Of a stretch of DNA of 32,000 bases, positions 16,028 to 31,992 are shown piece by piece. The DNA comes from Trichlorobacter lovleyi SZ. GTDB taxonomy: Bacteria; Desulfobacterota; Desulfuromonadia; Geobacterales; Pseudopelobacteraceae. The stretch covers positions 3,510,001 to 3,542,000 of the forward strand of contig NC_010814.1 of NCBI RefSeq assembly GCF_000020385.1, given 5' to 3'. Each line of letters starts with the position of its first letter. Within the stretch, counting starts at the first letter, position 1. A program made the position numbers and the translations under genes. The notes beneath the pieces were generated by a model. It did not search any database and was not told where the DNA came from. It saw nothing but the letters and a program-made list of their open reading frames with translations.

Positions 16028-16579
16028 TTACTGGACAACAAAATCAGTAAAATAGACCTTGCTGACCTTGCCCTGGGCAACGATCTTGCTGATTGCAGTC
16101 AGGATTTCCTCCCGCAACTGATTCTTACCCTGGACGTCCTGGACCTCCTGCAATGTTTTGGTCGTCAGAACCACCAGAATCGCATCCCGGATAGCAGCGA
16201 GACGTCCCTCCAACTCCGGCTTAACAGCCGCACTGACCATTTCAAGCTCAACTTTCACCTTAAGGTAGCGCAGTTCCTGACCGTCATAGATATTCACAAT
16301 GAATGGTTCCAGAGAAAAGACCGTTGAAACGCCCGGAGCGGCTGCGCCGCCATGCCCGCCTCCTGCAGCCGGTGGAGCTGCACCATGGCCTCCCTCGGCA
16401 ACCGGTGCGCCCTGTGCATCAGCCCCTTCTTTTTTCTTATCGCCTTTACCCATCATCATAAATACGACAACACCGGCGATAACCAGTACTAGCGCCGCTG
16501 CACCAATAATGATGAACAACTTTTTCTTGCTGCCGCCTTCCGCCGGGGCTTCGGCTGCCGCCTGCTCGTCTTTTGCCAT
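16028..16579 (-). CDS. fliL: Flagellar basal-body-associated protein FliL
   Basis: The start MAKDEQ... (ATG 16579, GGAGGA Shine-Dalgarno) is followed by a single TM (KKLFIIIGAAALVLVIAGVVVF) and an FliL core (FSLEPFIVNI...YLKVKVELE...IRDAILVVL...VYFTDFVVQ). The track's N-terminal extension was rejected. Confidence 0.85.
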   Translation of the reverse strand: MAKDEQAAAEAPAEGGSKKKLFIIIGAAALVLVIAGVVVFMMMGKGDKKKEGADAQGAPVAEGGHGAAPPAAGGGHGGAAAPGVSTVFSLEPFIVNIYDGQELRYLKVKVELEMVSAAVKPELEGRLAAIRDAILVVLTTKTLQEVQDVQGKNQLREEILTAISKIVAQGKVSKVYFTDFVVQ

Positions 16580-16698
16580 TCGATCCTCCGGTATAGACCT
16601 ACATGTAACTGATTCAGGCACTGCATTGCATTTGTAAAACGAAAACGAGGTTTTTGCAACCACTTGCCATCATTCTTCTGTATTGCTGATACAATTGT

Positions 16699-17750: not shown

Positions 17751-18134
17751 TTATAGAATAACTGCTGAATCAATATTGGTAAAAACATTACCTTTCATCT
17801 GATTGCGATCCATGGCTGTCACCACAGTTCGATTTTTTACACTTACCACCAGCGCTGCCTCCCCCACCATAACCAGTGAGTCCTTGCCGCCTTTCTGGGC
17901 CACACTGTTTACCGCCCCTTCCAACTGTTGGAGTTGATCAGCACTGAAGCTGATATTACGGGCCTTAAGACGATCCTGAGCATGCTGGGAGAACCTGACC
18001 CCCTGGGTCTGATCCAGGACCTTTGAAAACGGGGTCTCGCCAACTGTTTGTGCTGCTTGCGGCTTGGCTGGTTGAGCCGGCTTGCCAACCGGCTGTGCCG
18101 GTCTTGGAAAATAGATCTGATCAATCGTGCTCAT
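17751..18134 (-). CDS. Small flagellar operon protein (TIGR02530-like, found between flgD and flgE in fla/che-type operons)
   Basis: 127 aa. The Pro/Gln/Ala-rich N-terminus is followed by VRFSQHAQDRLKARNISFSADQLQQLEGAV...LVVSVKNRTVVTAMD. This pattern and position are as I recall for the family. The ATG and the flgD TGA overlap as ATGA. Confidence 0.55.
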   Translation of the reverse strand: MSTIDQIYFPRPAQPVGKPAQPAKPQAAQTVGETPFSKVLDQTQGVRFSQHAQDRLKARNISFSADQLQQLEGAVNSVAQKGGKDSLVMVGEAALVVSVKNRTVVTAMDRNQMKGNVFTNIDSAVIL

Positions 18135-18822: not shown

Positions 18823-20631
18823 TTAGAATCGCACATCAAGTGTAGATTGATACTGCGCCTCAATATACCGTATCGGAATCTCGGCCGTCTCTCTAAACAG
18901 GTTTCTTTCAACGCCTGTAACTCGCTGAGATTGCTGCTGAAGCGCCACCTGCTGACGCCAGTCACGAGTCTGTTGTGACGCACCGCCTCCCAAACCGGTT
19001 GACACATCAAACGAATCCATCTTGATATTTTGCCGGGCCAGGGTCTCTCTGAGATCATCAGCCTGCTGAAGAAGCGTCTCGCGCACCCCGCGATTCTCAG
19101 CAACGATTTCAATTTTGACGCCCTGTTTGGCATCCATATGCATACTCAACTGAATATCTCCCAAATGTTCCGGAGACAGCCTGAATGTGACACTCTGGTC
19201 TCCGCCCTGCTCACGCCCAGATGGTTTCAGATGGGTCACCACTTGTCGAGCAACCTGATCACTAACAGCTGCTTTTTCGCTGTCAACTGCCGGTGTTTCA
19301 CCTGCATACCCCTGAACAGCCATGAGATTTGGCTGCACTGTCGCTCCAAACTGATGTGCGGTTCCCGGCTCTGACTGCCCATGCTGCATACCGGTTTCAT
19401 CCAGACTGCTTACTGCCAGGCCTGGTATAACAACGTCACTCTCGGTGGTCCGGGACATCAAGATCGCAGGCGTACTACCAGTTTCTCTGGTTTCTCCTGA
19501 CACCTGTAGCGCCTGTTGTCCGGCAGTGGTTTGATTTGTCATCTGCACCGGACGTCCATAAACCAGCCATGCAATTGGGGACTTTGTTGTTTGCTCAGCC
19601 TCTACCCTGGCTTGCGGCTGGACCTCTACCCTGGTTTGCGGCTGGACCTCTACCCTGGTCTGCGGCTGGGCCTCTACCCTGGTCTGCGGCTGGACCTCTA
19701 CCCTGGCTTGCGGCTGGACCTCTACCCTGGTTTGCGGCTGGACCTCTACCCTGGTTTGCGGCTGGACCTCTACCCTGGTCTGCGGCTGGGCCTCTACCCT
19801 GGTCTGCGGCTGGACCTCTACCCTGGCTTGCGGCTGGACCTCTACCCTGGCTTGCGGCTGGACCTCTACCCTGGCTTGCGGCTGGACCTCTACCCTGGCT
19901 TGCGGCTGGACCTCTACCCTGGCTTGCGGCTGGACCTCTACCCTGGCTTGCGGCTGGACCTCTACCCTGGCTTGCGGCTGGACCTCTACCCTGGCTTGCG
20001 GCTGGACCTCTACCCTGGCTTGCGGCTGGACCTCTACCCTGGCTTGCGGCTGGACCTCTACCCTGGCTTGCGGCTGGACCTCTACCCTGGCTTGCGGCTG
20101 GACCTCTACCCTGGCTTGCGGCTGGACCTCTACCCTGGCTTGCGGCTGGACCTCTACCCTGGCTTGCGGCTGGACCTCTACCCTGGCTTGCGGCTGGACC
20201 TCTACCCTGGCTTGCGGCTGGACCTCTACCCTGGCTTGCGGCTGGACCTCTACCCTGGCTTGCGGCTGGACCTCCATCTCAGCAATTACGCCAACCGGCA
20301 TCGTATCTGCCGCCAAAGCGTCAGTACTATTTACAGCAGCTGAGATGTGCGCATCTGGTGTTGCTAACAAGGAGGCCAGCATCTGAAGAATGGCGGGGTC
20401 AAGAGTCATACCATTCTGTTCCTGCCGCTTTAGATCAAAGTCTACCTCAACACTTCCGGCATCCTTTTCCGACAACAGAACATCCTGTTTTTGAGTCTCT
20501 TGCACAACTGACGTGAGGAGTTGATCAAACCCTGAATTTCTGGCTACCAGATCTATCTGGCTTGCCCCTTCCAACTGCATACCGGCTGCCTGTACAGCCG
20601 CCGGCATCATCATAATCTGTCCTGCATCCAT
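18823..20631 (-). CDS. fliK: Hook-length control protein FliK, containing a 224-aa tandem-repeat insert
   Basis: The C-terminal Flg_hook-type domain is VTFRLSPEHLGDIQLSMHMDAKQGVKIEIVAENRGVRETLLQQADDLRETLARQNI. The centre is Gln/Pro-rich. It lies between the YlxF-like gene and flgD. The Shine-Dalgarno is GGAAGGAGG. Confidence 0.85.
   Translation of the reverse strand: MDAGQIMMMPAAVQAAGMQLEGASQIDLVARNSGFDQLLTSVVQETQKQDVLLSEKDAGSVEVDFDLKRQEQNGMTLDPAILQMLASLLATPDAHISAAVNSTDALAADTMPVGVIAEMEVQPQARVEVQPQARVEVQPQARVEVQPQARVEVQPQARVEVQPQARVEVQPQARVEVQPQARVEVQPQARVEVQPQARVEVQPQARVEVQPQARVEVQPQARVEVQPQARVEVQPQARVEVQPQARVEVQPQARVEVQPQARVEVQPQARVEVQPQTRVEAQPQTRVEVQPQTRVEVQPQTRVEVQPQARVEVQPQTRVEAQPQTRVEVQPQTRVEVQPQARVEAEQTTKSPIAWLVYGRPVQMTNQTTAGQQALQVSGETRETGSTPAILMSRTTESDVVIPGLAVSSLDETGMQHGQSEPGTAHQFGATVQPNLMAVQGYAGETPAVDSEKAAVSDQVARQVVTHLKPSGREQGGDQSVTFRLSPEHLGDIQLSMHMDAKQGVKIEIVAENRGVRETLLQQADDLRETLARQNIKMDSFDVSTGLGGGASQQTRDWRQQVALQQQSQRVTGVERNLFRETAEIPIRYIEAQYQSTLDVRF
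19601..20272 (-). repeat. Tandem array of 28 x 24 bp (minus-strand unit GTCCAGCCGCAAGCCAGGGTAGAG = VQPQ[A/T]RVE), in frame within fliK
   Basis: Direct counting shows that units 19817..20272 (19 copies) are nucleotide-identical. Positions 19601..19840 form two 120-bp five-unit super-repeats that differ at one base (C 19611 vs T 19731). The variant units encode QTR and AQPQTR. Confidence 0.97.
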
Positions 20632-20709: not shown

Positions 20710-21264
20710 CTACTTTTCGCCGCGCTTTCGCAGGTTCTCGTTTACCCAGCGAATGGTTCGCGGCTGATTAAGGTTGGGCACCAGCTTTGCAACAGTCTTG
20801 GTATCGAGCCGGTCCAGCAGCAGCTTGACCTCGTCCTCTTCCATCTTGTCCAGCAAATCAGCGGACTGAGCCGCCTTCATGGTCTTGAACAGCTTGACCA
20901 TTTTGGTAACCCGTTCACTCTGGGCCTGCTTGCGACGTTCTTCTTCAGCCTTCAACATTTCCTCATAACTCTTTTTTGTCTCTTCCATCGCCTTCAACTG
21001 GGCATCAATCCTGGCTCCCATCTTTTTCAGCTCTTCTTCTTTGGCAGCCAGTGCAGCTTCCTTTTCAGCCAGCTGTTGCCGTCGCGCCTCCTGAATCGCC
21101 CGTTCTTCACGGGCAGCACGGGTAGGCGGAACCGGGTCTCCCTGCGTCCCGGTCTGAGGGGTGCGGATCGGCTCTGTTGTGCCTTGCGATGCAGTGAGGG
21201 CAACAGTTGCAACGGTCCCCAGGCTGCATGCCATAGCTATAATTGATATCCAACGTTTGTTCAC
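20710..21264 (-). CDS. YlxF/MotE-like flagellar protein with a coiled coil and an MgtE-N-like C-terminal helical domain
   Basis: It has a hydrophobic N-terminus (WISIIAMACSLGTVATVALTA), a charged coiled coil (EERAIQEARRQQLAEKEAALAAKEEELKK) and the segment MVKLFKTMKAAQSADLLDKMEEDEVKLLLDRLDTKTVAKL. It occupies the fliJ-fliK slot that ylxF occupies in Bacillus. I re-called the start at GTG 21264 (AGGAG 7 nt upstream). Confidence 0.5.
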   Translation of the reverse strand: MNKRWISIIAMACSLGTVATVALTASQGTTEPIRTPQTGTQGDPVPPTRAAREERAIQEARRQQLAEKEAALAAKEEELKKMGARIDAQLKAMEETKKSYEEMLKAEEERRKQAQSERVTKMVKLFKTMKAAQSADLLDKMEEDEVKLLLDRLDTKTVAKLVPNLNQPRTIRWVNENLRKRGEK

Positions 21265-26764: not shown

Positions 26765-27202
26765 CTATTTACTGATTTCAAGTGTCTTAAGCGCCATATT
26801 TTTGGCTGCCTGGGCCGACATGACATTTGCCTCGTAGACCCGGGTCGCCGTAATCATATCGGCCATCTCCTCCACCACATTTACGTTAGGAAGCGCTACA
26901 TACCCCTGGGGATTAGCATCAGGATGCGCGGGGTCATACTGCATACGGGGCGCACTCTTGTCCTCAACAATCTCAACCACATTAACCTCACGGACATGCC
27001 GGTCCGCTGCACCGCCAAGCGCCTTTCCAAAAGCATCAACCGGAGCGGTTGCGGCAAAAACCGCATCCTTACGCTTATACGGCCCTCCTTCAGGCGTGCG
27101 GGTCGTATTAACGTTAGCCAGGTTACTGGATATAAGGTTCATTCTGGTTCGTTCAGCGGTAAGTGCCGATGAGCTGGTATTCATCGCGGTAAAAAGATCC
27201 AT
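26765..27202 (-). CDS. flgC: Proximal rod protein FlgC
   Basis: The sequence is MDLFTAMNTSSSALTAERTRMNLISSNLANVNTTRTPEGGPYKRK ... NVNVVEEMADMITATRVYEANV. It has a 1-nt TAATG overlap with flgB. Confidence 0.95.
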   Translation of the reverse strand: MDLFTAMNTSSSALTAERTRMNLISSNLANVNTTRTPEGGPYKRKDAVFAATAPVDAFGKALGGAADRHVREVNVVEIVEDKSAPRMQYDPAHPDANPQGYVALPNVNVVEEMADMITATRVYEANVMSAQAAKNMALKTLEISK

Positions 27203-27642
27203 TATTTACCCTCCCTCAAAGCGGTACGCAGCCCTTCAAACTTTTTTGACAGCAACTGGACCGACGCATTAAACAACACCTGATTCTGCATCATCCGGCT
27301 CATCTCATTTTCCATCTCGACCGAATTGCCGTCGCGGCCCGGCGTCTTGGCCGGCGTTTCAACAACAGTTCCACGAACCTGGCTGATCCGTTCACCGCCG
27401 CCACGCAAGGGGATATGTGCAGGATGGGTAGTTGCTCCGGAGAACTGTGAATCTCCTCTGCGAGTCGTCGACTTCTTGACGGCAGATTGCAGCTGCTGTT
27501 CAAACTCCAGACTTTTAGGGGTATATCCAGGAGTCTCAGCATTGGCAATATTGGACGAAATCAGATTTTGATTGCGCGTACGCAGATCAATGCTCTTACC
27601 CAACACATCAATGGTAGTATTAAACAGTCCTTCGACAGGCAC
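27202..27642 (-). CDS. flgB: Proximal rod protein FlgB
   Basis: The start is a GTG with GGGAGGA 6 nt upstream. It contains LRTRNQNLISSNIANAETPGYTPK and the C-terminal NSVEMENEMSRMMQNQVLFNASVQLL. Confidence 0.93.
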   Translation of the reverse strand: MPVEGLFNTTIDVLGKSIDLRTRNQNLISSNIANAETPGYTPKSLEFEQQLQSAVKKSTTRRGDSQFSGATTHPAHIPLRGGGERISQVRGTVVETPAKTPGRDGNSVEMENEMSRMMQNQVLFNASVQLLSKKFEGLRTALREGK

Positions 27643-27691: not shown

Positions 27692-27706
27692 TGCAATTTC
27701 TGTGCC
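27692..27706 (-). promoter_or_regulatory. Sigma-54 (RpoN) -24/-12 promoter upstream of flgB
   Basis: The minus strand reads aGGCACagaaaTTGCAaag. GG and GC are separated by exactly 10 nt, which matches TGGCAC-N5-TTGCW. The GC lies about 50 nt upstream of the flgB GTG, inside the 174-nt gap that follows the TPR gene. Confidence 0.6.
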
Positions 27707-27816: not shown

Positions 27817-29961
27817 CTACTTTTTCTTTGACGGGGCCAAAGCAGGGCGGGAAAGTTTGTCATCTTCAAGGGCCTGGCGGGCAAGACGCTGCCAATCCGG
27901 ATCCTTGCCTTCATTCAGCACTCGCTCAAACAGGGTGCGAGCCTGCTGACTGCGACCGTCCAACGCAGCCAGCTCACCAAGTTTATAAAGAAACTGATCC
28001 TTACGCTCTTTTGAAACCGTCTTTAAACCGGCTTCCAGCAACACGGCAGCCGCACTGCGTTCTCCGAGCGCCTGACGGGAGCTTGCCGCAATGTAATAGG
28101 CATCCCCCATCAGAACAGGGACCTCTTTCATATCTTTGACAGCCGACAGATAGAGCTCCATTGCCTGGGCAGAGCGGGAATATTCCTTGCTGTCCCAGAG
28201 CGCGCGGCCTAAATAATAATAACTGGCCGGAAAGGCCGCCTGTTCCTGTTTATTCAGGAGCCAGGAAAGACCGGTCCGGACAGCCGGCAGCTCATGCGCA
28301 GCAAACTGAATTGCCCCCAAACGCTCACGAGCCCAGCGTGTCTGGGCATGGGCAGGGTTACGCTGCAAAAAACCCTGCAACACCTTGCGAGCCATCATGG
28401 TGTCACCCAGTAGTTCCGCCTGGTCAGCGATCTGCAGCGTCAAGTAGGGGACATTATCCCCACCTACCCACGGCCGCTCCAGCAAACCGCTGTATAACGC
28501 TATCAGATCCAGAGGCCGCCCGGCTTTTTCAAACGCTGCAGAGACGGCGGGCAAAAAACCGGGGTTCTTTACTGCCGTAGCCAGAAATTCTTGATTATCC
28601 GTTACCAATCGAATCAATCCAGCCGGATTATTAGCCCAGAGCACACCCTGAAACACCAGCGCAACCAGATCTTCGCGAATATCACGAATGACCGTACTGT
28701 ATACCCCGGTGGGAAAACGTTTCTGATAGGTTATTACTAAATCCAGCGCCGTGTCGGCCGGCCCGTTGATCGCTTCCAGCAGGGCATGCTTAAACGTGGT
28801 CTCTTCCCGCAAATCAAAATCGGCGGTGTTGGCGGCAATTTTAGCGTAGGTGGCACCTAATGCCTGATAATCATCAGGTGTAGCCTCAAGAAAAGCCCGA
28901 TCTGCCAGTTTCATGATGGCTATCTGGTGAGCCTTGTTATCCTTGAAAGCAGTGGAGACGTTATTGTAAATTGCCAGCGCATCTCCTTCGCCTCCCTGAC
29001 GGGCCAACACATCCGCCATACGGACCAGCAGTACCGGCGCATACTTTTTATCGGCATTGGAGGCAATCAGCCGTGCCAGCAGTTGCCGTCCGCCCGGCAG
29101 GTCTCCGCTACGGGCAATACTATCACCATAGTAAAACATGATAGCCGGGTTCATTGTCAGAAAGTCCTGCCATTGCCGGGCAGCCTCACGAAAGGTTTCC
29201 AGCGCCGGCCCATACTTCTGCAAACGGTACTGTGCCTCTGCCAGCCGGTAGAGCGCAAGCGGACGGATCCGGGACTGCCTGGCTGCAAACGGGGTAAAGG
29301 CATCTTCGGCAGCAGTCAGCTTACCCTTATAGAGCGCCCCTTCCGCAGCAAGAAACAGGCGTTGCTCATCATCCGGCAACAAGGCCTTGAGCAGGTTCCG
29401 GTCTGTAGGCACAAAAGGGATCTCCGGCTTGAGTGGAGGGTCAAAATTACTGAGTAGCTTTGCTGCACCATTCCTGATCCTCTCCCTGCCGGGCAGCGCA
29501 GGGTGGGCTGCTGAACCGCCAAAAAGCGGGCCGACATCCAGAGAAAGCGCCGGCAGACCGTCAACATGCACCATTCGCCAGCCGACGCGGTTGGCGGCAA
29601 TGGCAAAGGTCAACAGAGCGTCATTTCCGCGCTGAGAGACCAGCACCCCCCCGATATTGCTGTCTGAGTAGCGGCGCAATGACCTGAACGGTGCGCCGGA
29701 AGTATCGCTGAATCTGATCCTGAGCCGATTGCCAGGGATTCTTGATACCCTGAAATGTGGTTCTTCAGCCAACTTAACGGTGATACGGGTGAAGGAGGAT
29801 TTGGGACGGATCTCTATCCGGTGGATCTGATTCTGAATTAACGCATCAGCACGGCGTGGGGATACAATCAAGGCAAGGAGCAGACAGAGCAGCAGGGCAA
29901 CACTGCCATACGGTGCCCTACGCAGCTGGAGCGCTGCTATCAGACTGACGGCAATCGGCAT
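27817..29961 (-). CDS. Large secreted/envelope protein: signal-like N-terminus, AMIN-like beta domain and a long TPR-like helical-repeat region. Function unknown.
   Basis: 714-aa uninterrupted ORF. The N-terminal hydrophobic stretch is VALLLCLLLALIVSPRRADA. The segment IHRIEIRPKSSFTRITVKLAEEPHFRVSRIPGNRLRIRFSDT resembles an AMIN domain. There are many 34-aa-like A/Y/L-periodic helices (ALYRLAEAQYRLQKYGPALETFREAARQ; FLYKLGELAALDGRSQQARTLFERVL). The start overlaps the upstream gene by 22 nt. Confidence 0.75.
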   Translation of the reverse strand: MPIAVSLIAALQLRRAPYGSVALLLCLLLALIVSPRRADALIQNQIHRIEIRPKSSFTRITVKLAEEPHFRVSRIPGNRLRIRFSDTSGAPFRSLRRYSDSNIGGVLVSQRGNDALLTFAIAANRVGWRMVHVDGLPALSLDVGPLFGGSAAHPALPGRERIRNGAAKLLSNFDPPLKPEIPFVPTDRNLLKALLPDDEQRLFLAAEGALYKGKLTAAEDAFTPFAARQSRIRPLALYRLAEAQYRLQKYGPALETFREAARQWQDFLTMNPAIMFYYGDSIARSGDLPGGRQLLARLIASNADKKYAPVLLVRMADVLARQGGEGDALAIYNNVSTAFKDNKAHQIAIMKLADRAFLEATPDDYQALGATYAKIAANTADFDLREETTFKHALLEAINGPADTALDLVITYQKRFPTGVYSTVIRDIREDLVALVFQGVLWANNPAGLIRLVTDNQEFLATAVKNPGFLPAVSAAFEKAGRPLDLIALYSGLLERPWVGGDNVPYLTLQIADQAELLGDTMMARKVLQGFLQRNPAHAQTRWARERLGAIQFAAHELPAVRTGLSWLLNKQEQAAFPASYYYLGRALWDSKEYSRSAQAMELYLSAVKDMKEVPVLMGDAYYIAASSRQALGERSAAAVLLEAGLKTVSKERKDQFLYKLGELAALDGRSQQARTLFERVLNEGKDPDWQRLARQALEDDKLSRPALAPSKKK

Positions 29962-31034
29962 AACCGCTTCACCTTGCTGGCGATCTCATCAGGGTCACAA
30001 GGCTTGATGATGATATCCCGTGCGCCGTATTTAAGCGCTTTTAGCACGGCAGTACGGGTCCATCTCTGGGCACACATAATTATCGGTACCGGCTGGTCCT
30101 GGCGTAAGGCATTAATCTTGATACAAACCGCCAGTTCACGGTCGTCGGCATCCTGAGAGCCGATCACCACCAGCCGTACATTACCTTGCGAAAAGACCTC
30201 CTTGACATCTGCGTTCAGGGTTGATTCTGCCAGTTTGAAACCGGAAAACTTCAGCGATTCCAACAGTTGCGCACGTTCCTCATCGCTGTCTTCAAAGACA
30301 GCAATCATATCCTCACCGGTAGTACCGGCAATACCGCCAGCCTTGCGGAGCGGCACCTCCTCACCGGTTTCAGTCGAAATGCCGGATGCGACTACGGCAG
30401 GCTCTCCGGCCTGCTCTGCGGCAATTTCTTCGGCAGGAGCAGCCGGGGGGGCTTCAGGCGGCGGATCATACTGATTCCCAAGCTCGACCGGAATCAGCAC
30501 ATCCAGATGATGCATTTCCTGGCCTTCCATCTCCAGCCGGGAGCGAAACATCAGATAATCGCCATTAGGCAGGGGATCTTCATCAGTGAGCGGATCAATC
30601 TCGGGGACATACTTCTTTGAACCGAGCAGCTTCAGGTGTGCCTTACCGGAAAGGGAGCCCTGGAAGATCGAATTCATGGCTCCATTGATCATATTCCCAA
30701 TTTCGCCGAAGGCGTCGATGTCGTCAGGCTCAATGATGGACAGACGCTGTTTTTCCTTAATCCTCGGCGCCGGAATCCCTAACAGCAGACTACTCATCAA
30801 AATGGCATCCCGCAGATTGAAGACCAGATGGAACTGACCGGGATACTCTTCCCGCGATTCAACAGCCAGCACGAAAACGCCGTCATCAAGATCGCCAAAG
30901 TAGGCGGCCTTGCTAAAGGTCAAAGAATCCGTCAGGGTTGCAGTCAAACCCTGTCCCAACAGCATACCGGCCTCTTCACCGGCCTGCCGTAGAGCGGTCT
31001 CCAGCATTTCGTGCAGCTTTACATAACCATCCAT
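29940..31034 (-). CDS. Hybrid protein: an N-terminal CheX/CheC-like domain, a Pro/Ala/Glu linker and a C-terminal receiver-like (REC) domain with an apparently substituted phospho-acceptor
   Basis: The N-terminal half contains DAFGEIGNMINGA (D-x3-E-x2-N, the CheC/CheX active-site pattern). The linker is PPPEAPPAAPAEEIAAEQAGEP. The C-terminal part is MIAVFEDSDEE...VRLVVIGSQDADD...PIIMCAQ...IIIKP, which has the REC topology with K-P conserved. By manual alignment to CheY, the beta3 end reads VVIGS rather than ...D. ATG 31034 is preferred over the track's GTG 31085, which lies inside a hairpin. Confidence 0.65.
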   Translation of the reverse strand: MDGYVKLHEMLETALRQAGEEAGMLLGQGLTATLTDSLTFSKAAYFGDLDDGVFVLAVESREEYPGQFHLVFNLRDAILMSSLLLGIPAPRIKEKQRLSIIEPDDIDAFGEIGNMINGAMNSIFQGSLSGKAHLKLLGSKKYVPEIDPLTDEDPLPNGDYLMFRSRLEMEGQEMHHLDVLIPVELGNQYDPPPEAPPAAPAEEIAAEQAGEPAVVASGISTETGEEVPLRKAGGIAGTTGEDMIAVFEDSDEERAQLLESLKFSGFKLAESTLNADVKEVFSQGNVRLVVIGSQDADDRELAVCIKINALRQDQPVPIIMCAQRWTRTAVLKALKYGARDIIIKPCDPDEIASKVKRLCRLPSV

Positions 31035-31066
31035 CAGGGGCTCGCGGGAGATACAGAGTGAGCTGC

Positions 31067-31090
31067 ACGGGGTGCACCTTCGCACCCCGT
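31067..31090 (-). other. Perfect 9-bp GC-rich hairpin between cheX and the CheX/REC hybrid gene
   Basis: ACGGGGTGC-(6-nt loop)-GCACCCCGT, located 19 nt after the cheX TAA. It has no U-tract. It could be a weak terminator, a processing site or a stability element. Confidence 0.35.
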
Positions 31091-31108: not shown

Positions 31109-31627
31109 TTACTCTTCTTTCTTGAGGGTCAGACCAACCAGGAAGCGTTCACTGGCATCAACATTGAACGGAATTACCACACAATCGATGTCCGAAAGCG
31201 AGTTAACCGTGTAATCTTCGCCAGCAATCACCGTCGGAATGGAGAGTTTGACATCAAGCCCACCTTTGGAAAGAATCATTTTGACACTGCCACCCAGCAT
31301 ATTGGCAATCTCACCAATGGCGTCATTCAGGTCTTCTCCCCCCTCTTCAACCTCGCTCTCATCCATCCCCAGCATGGCGCCGGTGATTTTCTTCGCAAGG
31401 TGCATCGGGCAGTGCATGGAGATAACACCGGAATAGGTACCGGCAAAACCCACCATGCCGGTGATGCTGCATTTAAAATGGGTAATCGGCTCCTTGAGCG
31501 GAAAATCGTCGGCCGGCTCCATCATCACCATGGTGGAAAAAACTTCACGCGTGGCGTTGATAATGTACTCGGAAAGCTGCTGCTCCGAGAACTTGAGGCT
31601 ATCAGCAATCTCGGCATTCAGACTCAT
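31109..31627 (-). CDS. cheX: CheX-type CheY-P phosphatase (CheC/CheX family)
   Basis: 172 aa. It has a single DAIGEIANMLGG (D-x3-E-x2-N) motif followed by P 22 residues after the N. Its size and one-motif architecture fit CheX. It overlaps the cheY stop by 4 nt. Confidence 0.8.
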   Translation of the reverse strand: MSLNAEIADSLKFSEQQLSEYIINATREVFSTMVMMEPADDFPLKEPITHFKCSITGMVGFAGTYSGVISMHCPMHLAKKITGAMLGMDESEVEEGGEDLNDAIGEIANMLGGSVKMILSKGGLDVKLSIPTVIAGEDYTVNSLSDIDCVVIPFNVDASERFLVGLTLKKEE

Positions 31628-31992
31628 AGGAGTCCCCCAAGTTTTTCATTCAGCTGCTCAGGCGTAAAGGGTTTTTTGATGCTGTCCTTGGCACCGCTGG
31701 CAATGGCGTCGGCAATCACATCCTCGCCACCTTCAGTGGTTATCATGACGATCGGCATCGAGAACCCGTTGGCACGCACGGCCTTGACAAACTCGAGCCC
31801 ATCCATGTTGGGCATATTGATATCAGAAAGGATCAGGTCGACGGTTTTACCCGAAGTCTGCAGAACGTTCAGCCCTTCAATGCCGTCACCCCCCTCAAGA
31901 ATGTCGTCAACCGGCAGTCCTGCCTGACGTAGTGAGCGGGAAATTATCTTTCTCATAGTGGATGAATCGTCAACGATCAGGATGTTTGCCAT
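31624..31992 (-). CDS. cheY: CheY-like single-domain response regulator
   Basis: The sequence is MANILIVDDSSTMRKII...DLILSDINMPNMDGLEF...PIVMITTEG...IKKPF. It has the acidic pair DD, a phospho-acceptor D in LSDINMP, a T and a K-P, all present. It is 122 aa. Confidence 0.93.
   Translation of the reverse strand: MANILIVDDSSTMRKIISRSLRQAGLPVDDILEGGDGIEGLNVLQTSGKTVDLILSDINMPNMDGLEFVKAVRANGFSMPIVMITTEGGEDVIADAIASGAKDSIKKPFTPEQLNEKLGGLL

Follow-up and report, generated by a model that had tools for sequence, protein, structure and literature searches.

We report that a 714-amino-acid (aa) protein, encoded at positions 27817-29961 of a 32,000-nucleotide (nt) window of the Trichlorobacter lovleyi SZ genome (contig NC_010814.1, positions 3,510,001 to 3,542,000), probably corresponds, in the Geobacterales, to PflA, a periplasmic scaffold protein of the flagellar motor. 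The PflA-type reading is supported by the fold match to chain 9hmf_K of the Protein Data Bank (PDB), the invariant flagellar synteny and the occurrence of a FlgY/FlbB-like gene in the same cluster. The same evidence favors the proposal of a first-pass annotation of this DNA, in which the open reading frame (ORF) was taken for a PflA/PflB-like periplasmic scaffold of the motor or stators. The gene, its domain layout, the fold match and the gene order were observed directly. Within the PflA/PflB pair the protein is PflA-like, since it lacks the transmembrane segment and the mid-solenoid antiparallel beta pair that define PflB (PMC11870540): model and sequence contain no transmembrane segment beyond the N-terminal signal-type hydrophobic stretch, and the AlphaFold2 model has zero strands past residue 144. 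While this kind of protein was already described in 2024-2025, the one presented here is an uncharacterised member of it.

The ORF lies on the minus strand, starts with an ATG at 29961 and was found as first annotated. We consider it a real gene because the searches detected 324 homologues, with many full-length sequences among them and identities reaching as low as about 45-50%. The gene and the regions of its product, which is dominated by tetratricopeptide repeats (TPRs), are as follows:

27817..29961 (including the stop), minus strand: pflA-like gene, 714 aa (ORF list, homologues, AlphaFold2 model, Foldseek)
29842..29961, minus strand: Sec-type signal peptide, residues 1-40, with predicted cleavage between ADA and L (-3/-1 rule, conserved hydrophobic core)
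29530..29832, minus strand: N-terminal eight-strand beta domain, AMIN-like, residues 44-144 (DSSP on the AlphaFold2 model)
29401..29529, minus strand: linker, residues 145-187, with the motif FDPPxKxxxPFxPTDR (conservation in the alignment)
27862..29400, minus strand: TPR-type alpha-solenoid, residues 188-700 (AlphaFold2 secondary structure; Pfam TPR_16, TPR_6 and TPR_14)

The structural model was built with AlphaFold2 from a 24-sequence family alignment (A1) and reached a mean predicted local distance difference test score (pLDDT) of 85.8, with values >=70 for 638 of the 714 residues. The N-terminus displays two basic residues (R14 and R15), a 15-residue hydrophobic core (19-33, of which residues 20-33 were modelled as a hydrophobic helix) and an A-D-A triplet preceding L41. 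As position -1 is occupied by alanine in 23 of the 24 family members, position -3 by a small residue, and no lipobox is conserved, the N-terminal hydrophobic segment retains the cleavable appearance that it was first given. By these rules, we predict a mature protein that is soluble and periplasmic, its Sec signal being cleaved by signal peptidase I. The beta domain consists of eight main strands (pLDDT about 78-89) and is followed by the linker, which contains a single short helix, shows low pLDDT at residues 148-153, and carries an invariant motif spanning F173 to R188 (F-D-P-P-x-K-x-x-x-P-F-x-P-T-D-R). With 15 invariant positions out of 43, the linker represents the densest invariant stretch of the protein (7 out of 101 in the beta domain, 105 out of 513 in the solenoid). 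The remainder is an unbroken and strand-free solenoid of about 28-31 helices (14-15 hairpins), in which the early TPRs (about residues 188-330) are better conserved than the C-terminal ones, and which gives way to a lysine-rich disordered tail of 14 residues. The helical repeats put forward in the first-pass annotation are thus present as a TPR solenoid, its length being about 510 aa (188-700) and not the roughly 550 aa then estimated. One homologue (P0120, from a groundwater Deltaproteobacteria metagenome-assembled genome, MAG) carries a 24-residue mid-solenoid insertion (A1 columns about 464-487) that is unique in the alignment and may be either an assembly/frameshift artefact or a genuine loop insertion.

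The comparison of the full-length AlphaFold2 model with PDB structures by Foldseek, of the kind proposed in the first-pass annotation for the confrontation with PflA, returned 9hmf_K as the top match (E = 6.5e-15, probability 1.00), over 815 alignment columns that spanned both proteins end to end. The runner-up matches were generic eukaryotic TPR scaffolds (APC/C, Ski3, Ctr9 and OGT), starting from 1.5e-10, which makes the E-value of 9hmf_K about 10,000-fold better than those of generic TPR proteins. At the level of the model, the match is one of shared architecture and local 3Di similarity, and not of rigid superposition. The 9HMF entry ('Periplasmic scaffold of the Campylobacter jejuni flagellar motor') is a C-alpha model for which signal peptides were removed before modelling (PMC12222027, Drobnic et al.). 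In the motor of C. jejuni, 17 spokes of PflA extend outward from the central axis, with the N-terminal domain and the linker wrapping PflB at the rim, and the PflA/PflB assembly and FliL jointly keep 17 stator complexes in place at a large radius (PMC12222027). The layout of PflA comprises a signal peptide, an N-terminal beta-sandwich, a flexible loop and 16-17 TPRs (PMC12222027, PMC11870540); the sandwich was named 'PflA-AMIN', after the AMIN domains of PilQ, when the complex of PflA(16-163) with PflB was solved (PMC11870540). Hence, the T. lovleyi protein shares with the PflA of the proximal-disk spokes (C. jejuni and Helicobacter pylori) the signal peptide, the eight-strand AMIN-like sandwich, the linker and the long TPR superhelix (about 14-15 hairpins here, 16-17 TPRs in PflA), and is similar in size (714 versus about 788 aa). 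Its linker (145-187) occupies a position equivalent to that of the loop with which PflA wraps around PflB (PMC11870540, PMC12222027).

The conservation of the locus was assessed in one genome per species (80 loci), by placing neighbours through tblastn with the proteins of the window. All but one of the loci (79 out of 80) were titled Geobacterales, Desulfuromonadales or unclassified Deltaproteobacteria/Proteobacteria, the exception (L024, labelled Pedobacter sp.) being probably a mis-binned contig. The homologues that bear organism names belong to Trichlorobacter, Geobacter, Oryzomonas and unclassified Geobacteraceae or Deltaproteobacteria MAGs and, on these records, the sequence family appears confined to Geobacterales. 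The same-strand order of response regulator, TPR gene, flgB, flgC, fliE, fliF and fliG was recovered in all the 75 loci with enough flank, down to 45% identity, so that the conservation beside flgB, which the first-pass annotation had singled out for checking, is complete within this set. CheY and CheX precede the regulator except in a few distant loci. In the most divergent loci the TPR protein retains 45-50% identity, as against about 83-85% for FliG and about 72% for FlgC; considering this low identity and the unbroken gene order, the TPR gene is a fast-evolving, never-lost member of the flagellar cluster.

A putative partner is encoded in the same cluster, between fliJ and fliK:

20710..21264, minus strand: FlgY/FlbB/MotE-like gene, 184 aa (MgtE_N and collar_FlbB matches)

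Both matches of this ORF are sub-threshold (Pfam MgtE_N, E = 4.6e-4; collar_FlbB, the best NCBIfam match, E = 2.9e-6 and 27 bits versus a cut-off of 110), and in the precomputed Pfam record on public contigs it appears without any domain. Since both its position (fliJ/fliK) and its family match the expectation for FlgY, the product is likely a FlgY/FlbB/MotE-type E-ring protein, the proposed partner of PflA-type spokes. For T. lovleyi SZ, Supplementary Table 5 of a preprint from 2025 (PMC11870540) contains a FlgY-1 (WP_012471329.1, 184 aa) and a TPR-1 (WP_012471338.1, 714 aa, 'potential PflA'), the latter as the single flagellum-linked TPR protein of this strain. Given that both lengths equal those found in the window, and that the accession offset of nine equals the nine-gene distance separating the two genes here, the protein was almost certainly already tabulated there as a PflA candidate. 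Equivalent entries of 700-710 aa were given for Geobacter metallireducens, G. pickeringii, G. benzoatilyticus and Pelobacter propionicus (PMC11870540, Table S5). The word 'undescribed', used in the first-pass annotation, therefore has to be abandoned, as the published PflA architecture is the same and the T. lovleyi SZ protein is in print as a 'potential PflA' (PMC11870540). The label 'lineage-specific' does not hold either, except in the narrower sense that the sequence family is confined to Geobacterales: PflA-like architectures are widespread according to the preprint, which proposed that FlgY occurs in 66%, and single-copy PflA-like TPR proteins in about 52%, of flagellated species (PMC11870540). 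Like the putative PflA homologues reported outside Campylobacterota, the protein described here is single-copy and encoded near flagellar genes (PMC11870540); it is also accompanied by a FlgY-type gene.

The proposed members of the FlgY/PflA-like families include FlbB/FlcA of Borrelia and MotE/MotC/MotK of alpha-proteobacteria (PMC11870540). In this scheme FlcA (Borrelia burgdorferi) and MotC/MotK would be PflA-type (TPR) and FlbB and MotE would be FlgY-type (MgtE_N/ARM-like) stator-associated homologues (PMC11870540). The likeness to FlbB extends to the 184-aa ORF, whose best NCBIfam match is collar_FlbB, whereas the scores remain far under the cut-offs (10.6 versus 300 bits for FlcA, 27 versus 110 bits for FlbB). 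The motors differ as well, with spirochetes having periplasmic flagella and alpha-proteobacteria other accessory sets.

Family searches with the whole protein yielded TPR_16, TPR_6 and TPR_14 above the Pfam cut-offs and no flagellar family in either Pfam or NCBIfam, in agreement with the earlier statement that no core flagellar family could be recognised. Those homologues that bear organism names carry no annotation beyond 'tetratricopeptide repeat protein' or 'TolA-binding protein'. In its own sequence the N-terminal domain gave no match to Pfam AMIN (PF11741), be it in the whole protein or in the N-terminal 161 residues alone. When the N-terminal 161 residues of 15 family members were scanned (gathering cut-off 20.5 bits), eight matched AMIN at E<=10 and one of these, the most divergent member, exceeded the cut-off (22.8 bits); the other seven stayed below it (six with individual scores of 12.4-17.9 bits), and in some of them the register was shifted. 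We stress that 'AMIN-like' is a fold-level description for which the support in sequence is marginal; accordingly, of the AMIN-like beta module initially recognised, whose quoted beta-rich segment falls inside residues 44-144, the eight-strand beta domain stood, and a Pfam AMIN match in the window copy did not. The domain shares with the AMIN of PilQ and AmiC a small beta-sandwich with paired antiparallel strands, placed N-terminally in a periplasmic protein; on the other hand, the window copy misses the Pfam model, and peptidoglycan binding is here putative. An exhaustive HMMER profile search with the N-terminal module against 1.84 billion cluster representatives (E<=1e-3) recovered 37 proteins, the full-length ones all having the length of the family (686-724 aa) and the four weakest matches (E>=4e-5) being possibly unrelated; neither classical AMIN proteins nor PflA from other phyla were retrieved by it. 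As the search returned its own family only, the N-terminal module constitutes a tight, lineage-restricted sequence family.

Several observations weigh against the PflA assignment. TPR arrays are prone to convergence. The TM-scores reported by Foldseek for 9hmf_K are low (0.24/0.23, with a root-mean-square deviation of 38 Å), as expected considering that a long solenoid is flexible. The assignment of chain K (773 residues) to PflA was inferred from length and mass, and not from the PDB entry: the PflAB dimer has 167 kDa and the PflB construct 79 kDa (PMC12222027), which leaves about 88 kDa, or about 773 residues. No sequence-level link to the PflA of Campylobacterota emerged from the N-terminal profile search or from the PDB searches (single sequence, full-length profile and N-terminal profile), the latter returning just YbgF, CpoB, designed TPRs or noise; such a missing match is expected, since PflA is not conserved in sequence across taxa (PMC11870540). 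The window contains neither a second TPR gene nor a PflB-like gene, and the cluster differs from the C. jejuni system by having no genes for PflB, PflC, PflD or FcpMNO. In the literature we found no cryo-electron tomography or genetics of Geobacter motors, and nothing relevant on PflA together with Geobacter.

Among the alternatives, the most resilient regards the product as a flagellum-associated periplasmic TPR protein that does not hold stators, such as an assembly chaperone, a peptidoglycan-remodelling adaptor (acting in rod/P-ring insertion) or a polar-positioning factor, its likeness to PflA reflecting a common periplasmic design. The synteny would suit this alternative too, as it shows a flagellar role without telling which, and so would the low TM-scores to PflA, the lack of a PflB partner in the cluster and the AMIN-like domain, given that the AMIN domains of AmiC and PilQ are established to target peptidoglycan and septa. 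We nevertheless consider it unlikely, because it was specifically PflA that came out as the best structural match (by four orders of magnitude), because a FlgY/FlbB-like gene co-occurs as in the published pairing of E-ring and spokes, and because the characterised relatives in three phyla (PflA, FlcA and MotC/MotK) are functionally linked to stator complexes (PMC11870540).

Far less probable is that the protein corresponds to PflB (rim) or to the spirochete FlcA (collar) instead of PflA. Both are long periplasmic TPR motor proteins and a very weak NCBIfam match to FlcA (NF047371, FlcA_CTERM; E = 0.14) was registered, but its 10.6 bits face a cut-off of 300, the signal peptide is of the cleavable type, the model has no strands beyond the N-terminal domain, and the matched 9HMF chain has the length of PflA, not that of PflB. 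We give still less credence to a generic Tol-Pal-type TPR protein (YbgF/CpoB, 'TolA-binding protein') that merely adjoins flagellar genes: the NCBIfam tol_pal_ybgF model (TIGR02795) matched with 59.5 bits (E = 4.6e-16), PDB profiles matched YbgF (7.6e-4) and CpoB (0.011), and several homologues were named 'TolA-binding protein' by the Joint Genome Institute (JGI), yet the score lies under the cut-off of 90.1 bits and covers about 100 of the 714 residues (199-299 only, where the first TPRs resemble the YbgF TPR domain), YbgF and CpoB are far smaller and devoid of an AMIN-like beta domain, and no tol-pal genes occur nearby, the context being invariably one of flagellar and chemotaxis genes. The weak YbgF/CpoB matches are moreover accounted for, since YbgF-like TPRs are seen by Drobnic et al. 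as a possible evolutionary origin of PflA/PflB (PMC12222027). A lipoprotein or pilotin (PilF/BamD-like) was also considered and discarded, there being no conserved lipobox cysteine and an NCBIfam BamD match of only E = 0.025.

Returning to the PflA-like gene, its immediate setting comprises the following features:

31624-31992, minus strand: cheY (Pfam Response_reg, 2.8e-26)
31109-31627, minus strand: cheX (Pfam CheX, 6.8e-27)
29940..31085, minus strand: upstream gene with a weak CheX-like N-terminal region and a receiver domain, 364-381 aa (Pfam, gene calls)
27693-27706, minus strand: sigma-54-type promoter motif GGCACagaaaTTGC upstream of flgB (exact match)
27202..27642, minus strand: flgB, which opens the downstream rod/MS-ring operon (Pfam Flg_bb_rod)

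The TPR gene overlaps the upstream gene by 22 nt (its ATG lies at 29961, and the stop of the upstream gene extends to 29940), just as the first-pass annotation had noted for the preceding che-like gene, whose product carries at its C-terminus a receiver domain scoring 29.9 bits, just under the Pfam cut-off of 30.2. The cheX and cheY genes are placed in one transcription unit with the regulator and the TPR gene, and in contigs that encode an identical protein this unit reads MCP-cheY-cheX-regulator-TPR, with the gene for a methyl-accepting chemotaxis protein (MCP) standing first, at a divergent boundary. Beyond the end of the window (L081 1-5900, same genome) an MCP gene is indeed found upstream of cheY on the same strand, and past it, in divergent orientation, a 2-thiouracil desulfurase/DUF1722 gene and a second chemotaxis-type cluster (receiver, CheC, PAS-GGDEF and CheA-CheW). 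Regulator and TPR gene are never far apart (-22 to about +105 nt), and they remain paired throughout the related loci, even in the four without cheY/cheX matches (L063, L068, L069 and L079), which suggests a functional link between the CheX-like/receiver regulator and the scaffold protein.

On the other side of the TPR gene, a non-coding gap of 174 nt separates its stop from the GTG of flgB (27642). This gap holds the motif aGGCACagaaaTTGCa, an exact GGCAC-N5-TTGC situated about 110 nt past the TPR stop (the distance originally given) and about 50 nt ahead of the flgB GTG. A sigma-54 motif with at most one mismatch was present in the corresponding gap of 51 of the 75 related loci, and an RpoN promoter is tabulated as predicted for the flgB (GSU0407)-flgC operon of G. 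sulfurreducens (PMC2725144). The TPR gene is thus the last gene of the upstream MCP-cheY-cheX-regulator unit and lies outside the flgB operon; to call it 'fused to the head of the flagellar operon', as was done at first, is imprecise, the conserved sigma-54 promoter being located between the gene and flgB. Since no intrinsic terminator turned up between the two in a terminator scan, transcriptional read-through from the upstream unit into flgB is possible. The window contains just two exact copies of GGCAC-N5-TTGC; the second (20777-20790, plus strand) lies on the non-coding strand, antisense within the FlgY-like gene, and is probably due to chance, considering that 16 one-mismatch matches occur in the window versus about 12 expected from shuffles.

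Overall, the window is occupied by one unbroken flagellar cluster, all of it on the minus strand, with flgN at one end and cheY at the other. Past the rod/MS-ring genes it comprises, in order, fliH, fliI, fliJ, the 184-aa ORF, fliK, flgD, a TIGR02530 gene, flgE and fliL; then fliM, fliN, fliO, fliP, an unscanned gap at the usual position of fliQ, fliR, flhB and flhA; and finally flhF, flhG, fliA, flgF, flgG, flgA, flgH, flgI, a flgJ-like gene and flgN. One further product probably lies next to the scaffold once the motor is assembled:

16028..16663, minus strand: fliL

The usual flbD-motA-motB-fliL stretch is cut down to the TIGR02530/'Flagellar_put' gene (17751-18134), flgE and fliL. Since motA and motB do not occur in the window, the stator genes must sit elsewhere in the genome. 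FliK (18823-20631, minus strand) is long (602 aa) and has an internal region that gives a bactofilin-like match (34.1 bits for the whole protein, no single stretch passing) as well as low-complexity matches; this region coincides with a high local GC content (0.58) and a strongly negative AT skew (-0.27) at 19-22 kb.

Our view of the function of the protein takes C. jejuni PflA, Borrelia FlcA/FlbB and the alpha-proteobacterial MotC/MotK-MotE as analogues, from which its partners, its phenotype and (with less certainty) its spoke geometry may be inferred. Sec export, followed by signal-peptide cleavage, would deliver the protein to the periplasm, where the TPR superhelix would form radial spokes around the MS-ring and the rod. 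The inner ends of the spokes (the C-terminal part of the solenoid) would be held by a FlgY/FlbB-like ring around the MS-ring collar, while the AMIN-like sandwich and the invariant linker would be placed at the outer end, beside the stators and FliL. There, the outer end would bind MotB, FliL, peptidoglycan or the TPR groove of the neighbouring subunit and, by doing so, would fix or stabilise the stator units: the conserved linker may be the element that binds MotB, FliL or the groove of the adjacent spoke, and the AMIN-like domain the one that contacts peptidoglycan. Loss of the gene would be expected to give cells that are flagellated but paralysed or weakly motile.

The task performed by the linker in C. 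jejuni (binding of PflB) cannot carry over directly, because the cluster contains no PflB and a single TPR protein is listed for the strain. Besides the missing partners, the gene differs from PflA by its place at the end of an MCP-cheY-cheX-regulator unit beside flgB, by the lack of detectable sequence similarity and by a linker motif that is specific to the family. Tentatively, and with more doubt than confidence, we propose that Geobacterales possess a minimal, PflB-independent spoke scaffold, in which the AMIN-like domain and the linker motif would anchor the outer end directly to peptidoglycan, MotB, FliL or the next TPR groove, and in which the coupling to a regulator outside the sigma-54 flgB operon would place the scaffold under a control separate from that of basal-body synthesis. 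Being translationally coupled to the CheX-like/receiver hybrid, the gene could allow such separate control of scaffold supply to act on stator recruitment or torque. Some novelty resides in three of these aspects: the PflB-less architecture, the invariant linker motif and the conserved coupling to a CheX-like/receiver regulator away from the sigma-54 flgB operon.

Should PflA-type spokes and E-rings of the FlgY type indeed prove ancient and widespread, as proposed in the preprint, the simple motor of Escherichia coli and Salmonella would be the exception. A well-defined, PflB-less family such as this one would then be well suited to finding out how a spoke functions in isolation and to which partner the conserved linker attaches. 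At the level of databases, hundreds of entries could exchange their present names ('tetratricopeptide repeat protein', 'TolA-binding protein') for that of putative flagellar scaffold protein. Furthermore, the motility and chemotaxis of Geobacter and Trichlorobacter toward insoluble Fe(III) and electrodes are ecologically important, and a paralysed-flagella locus would provide a useful genetic handle on them.

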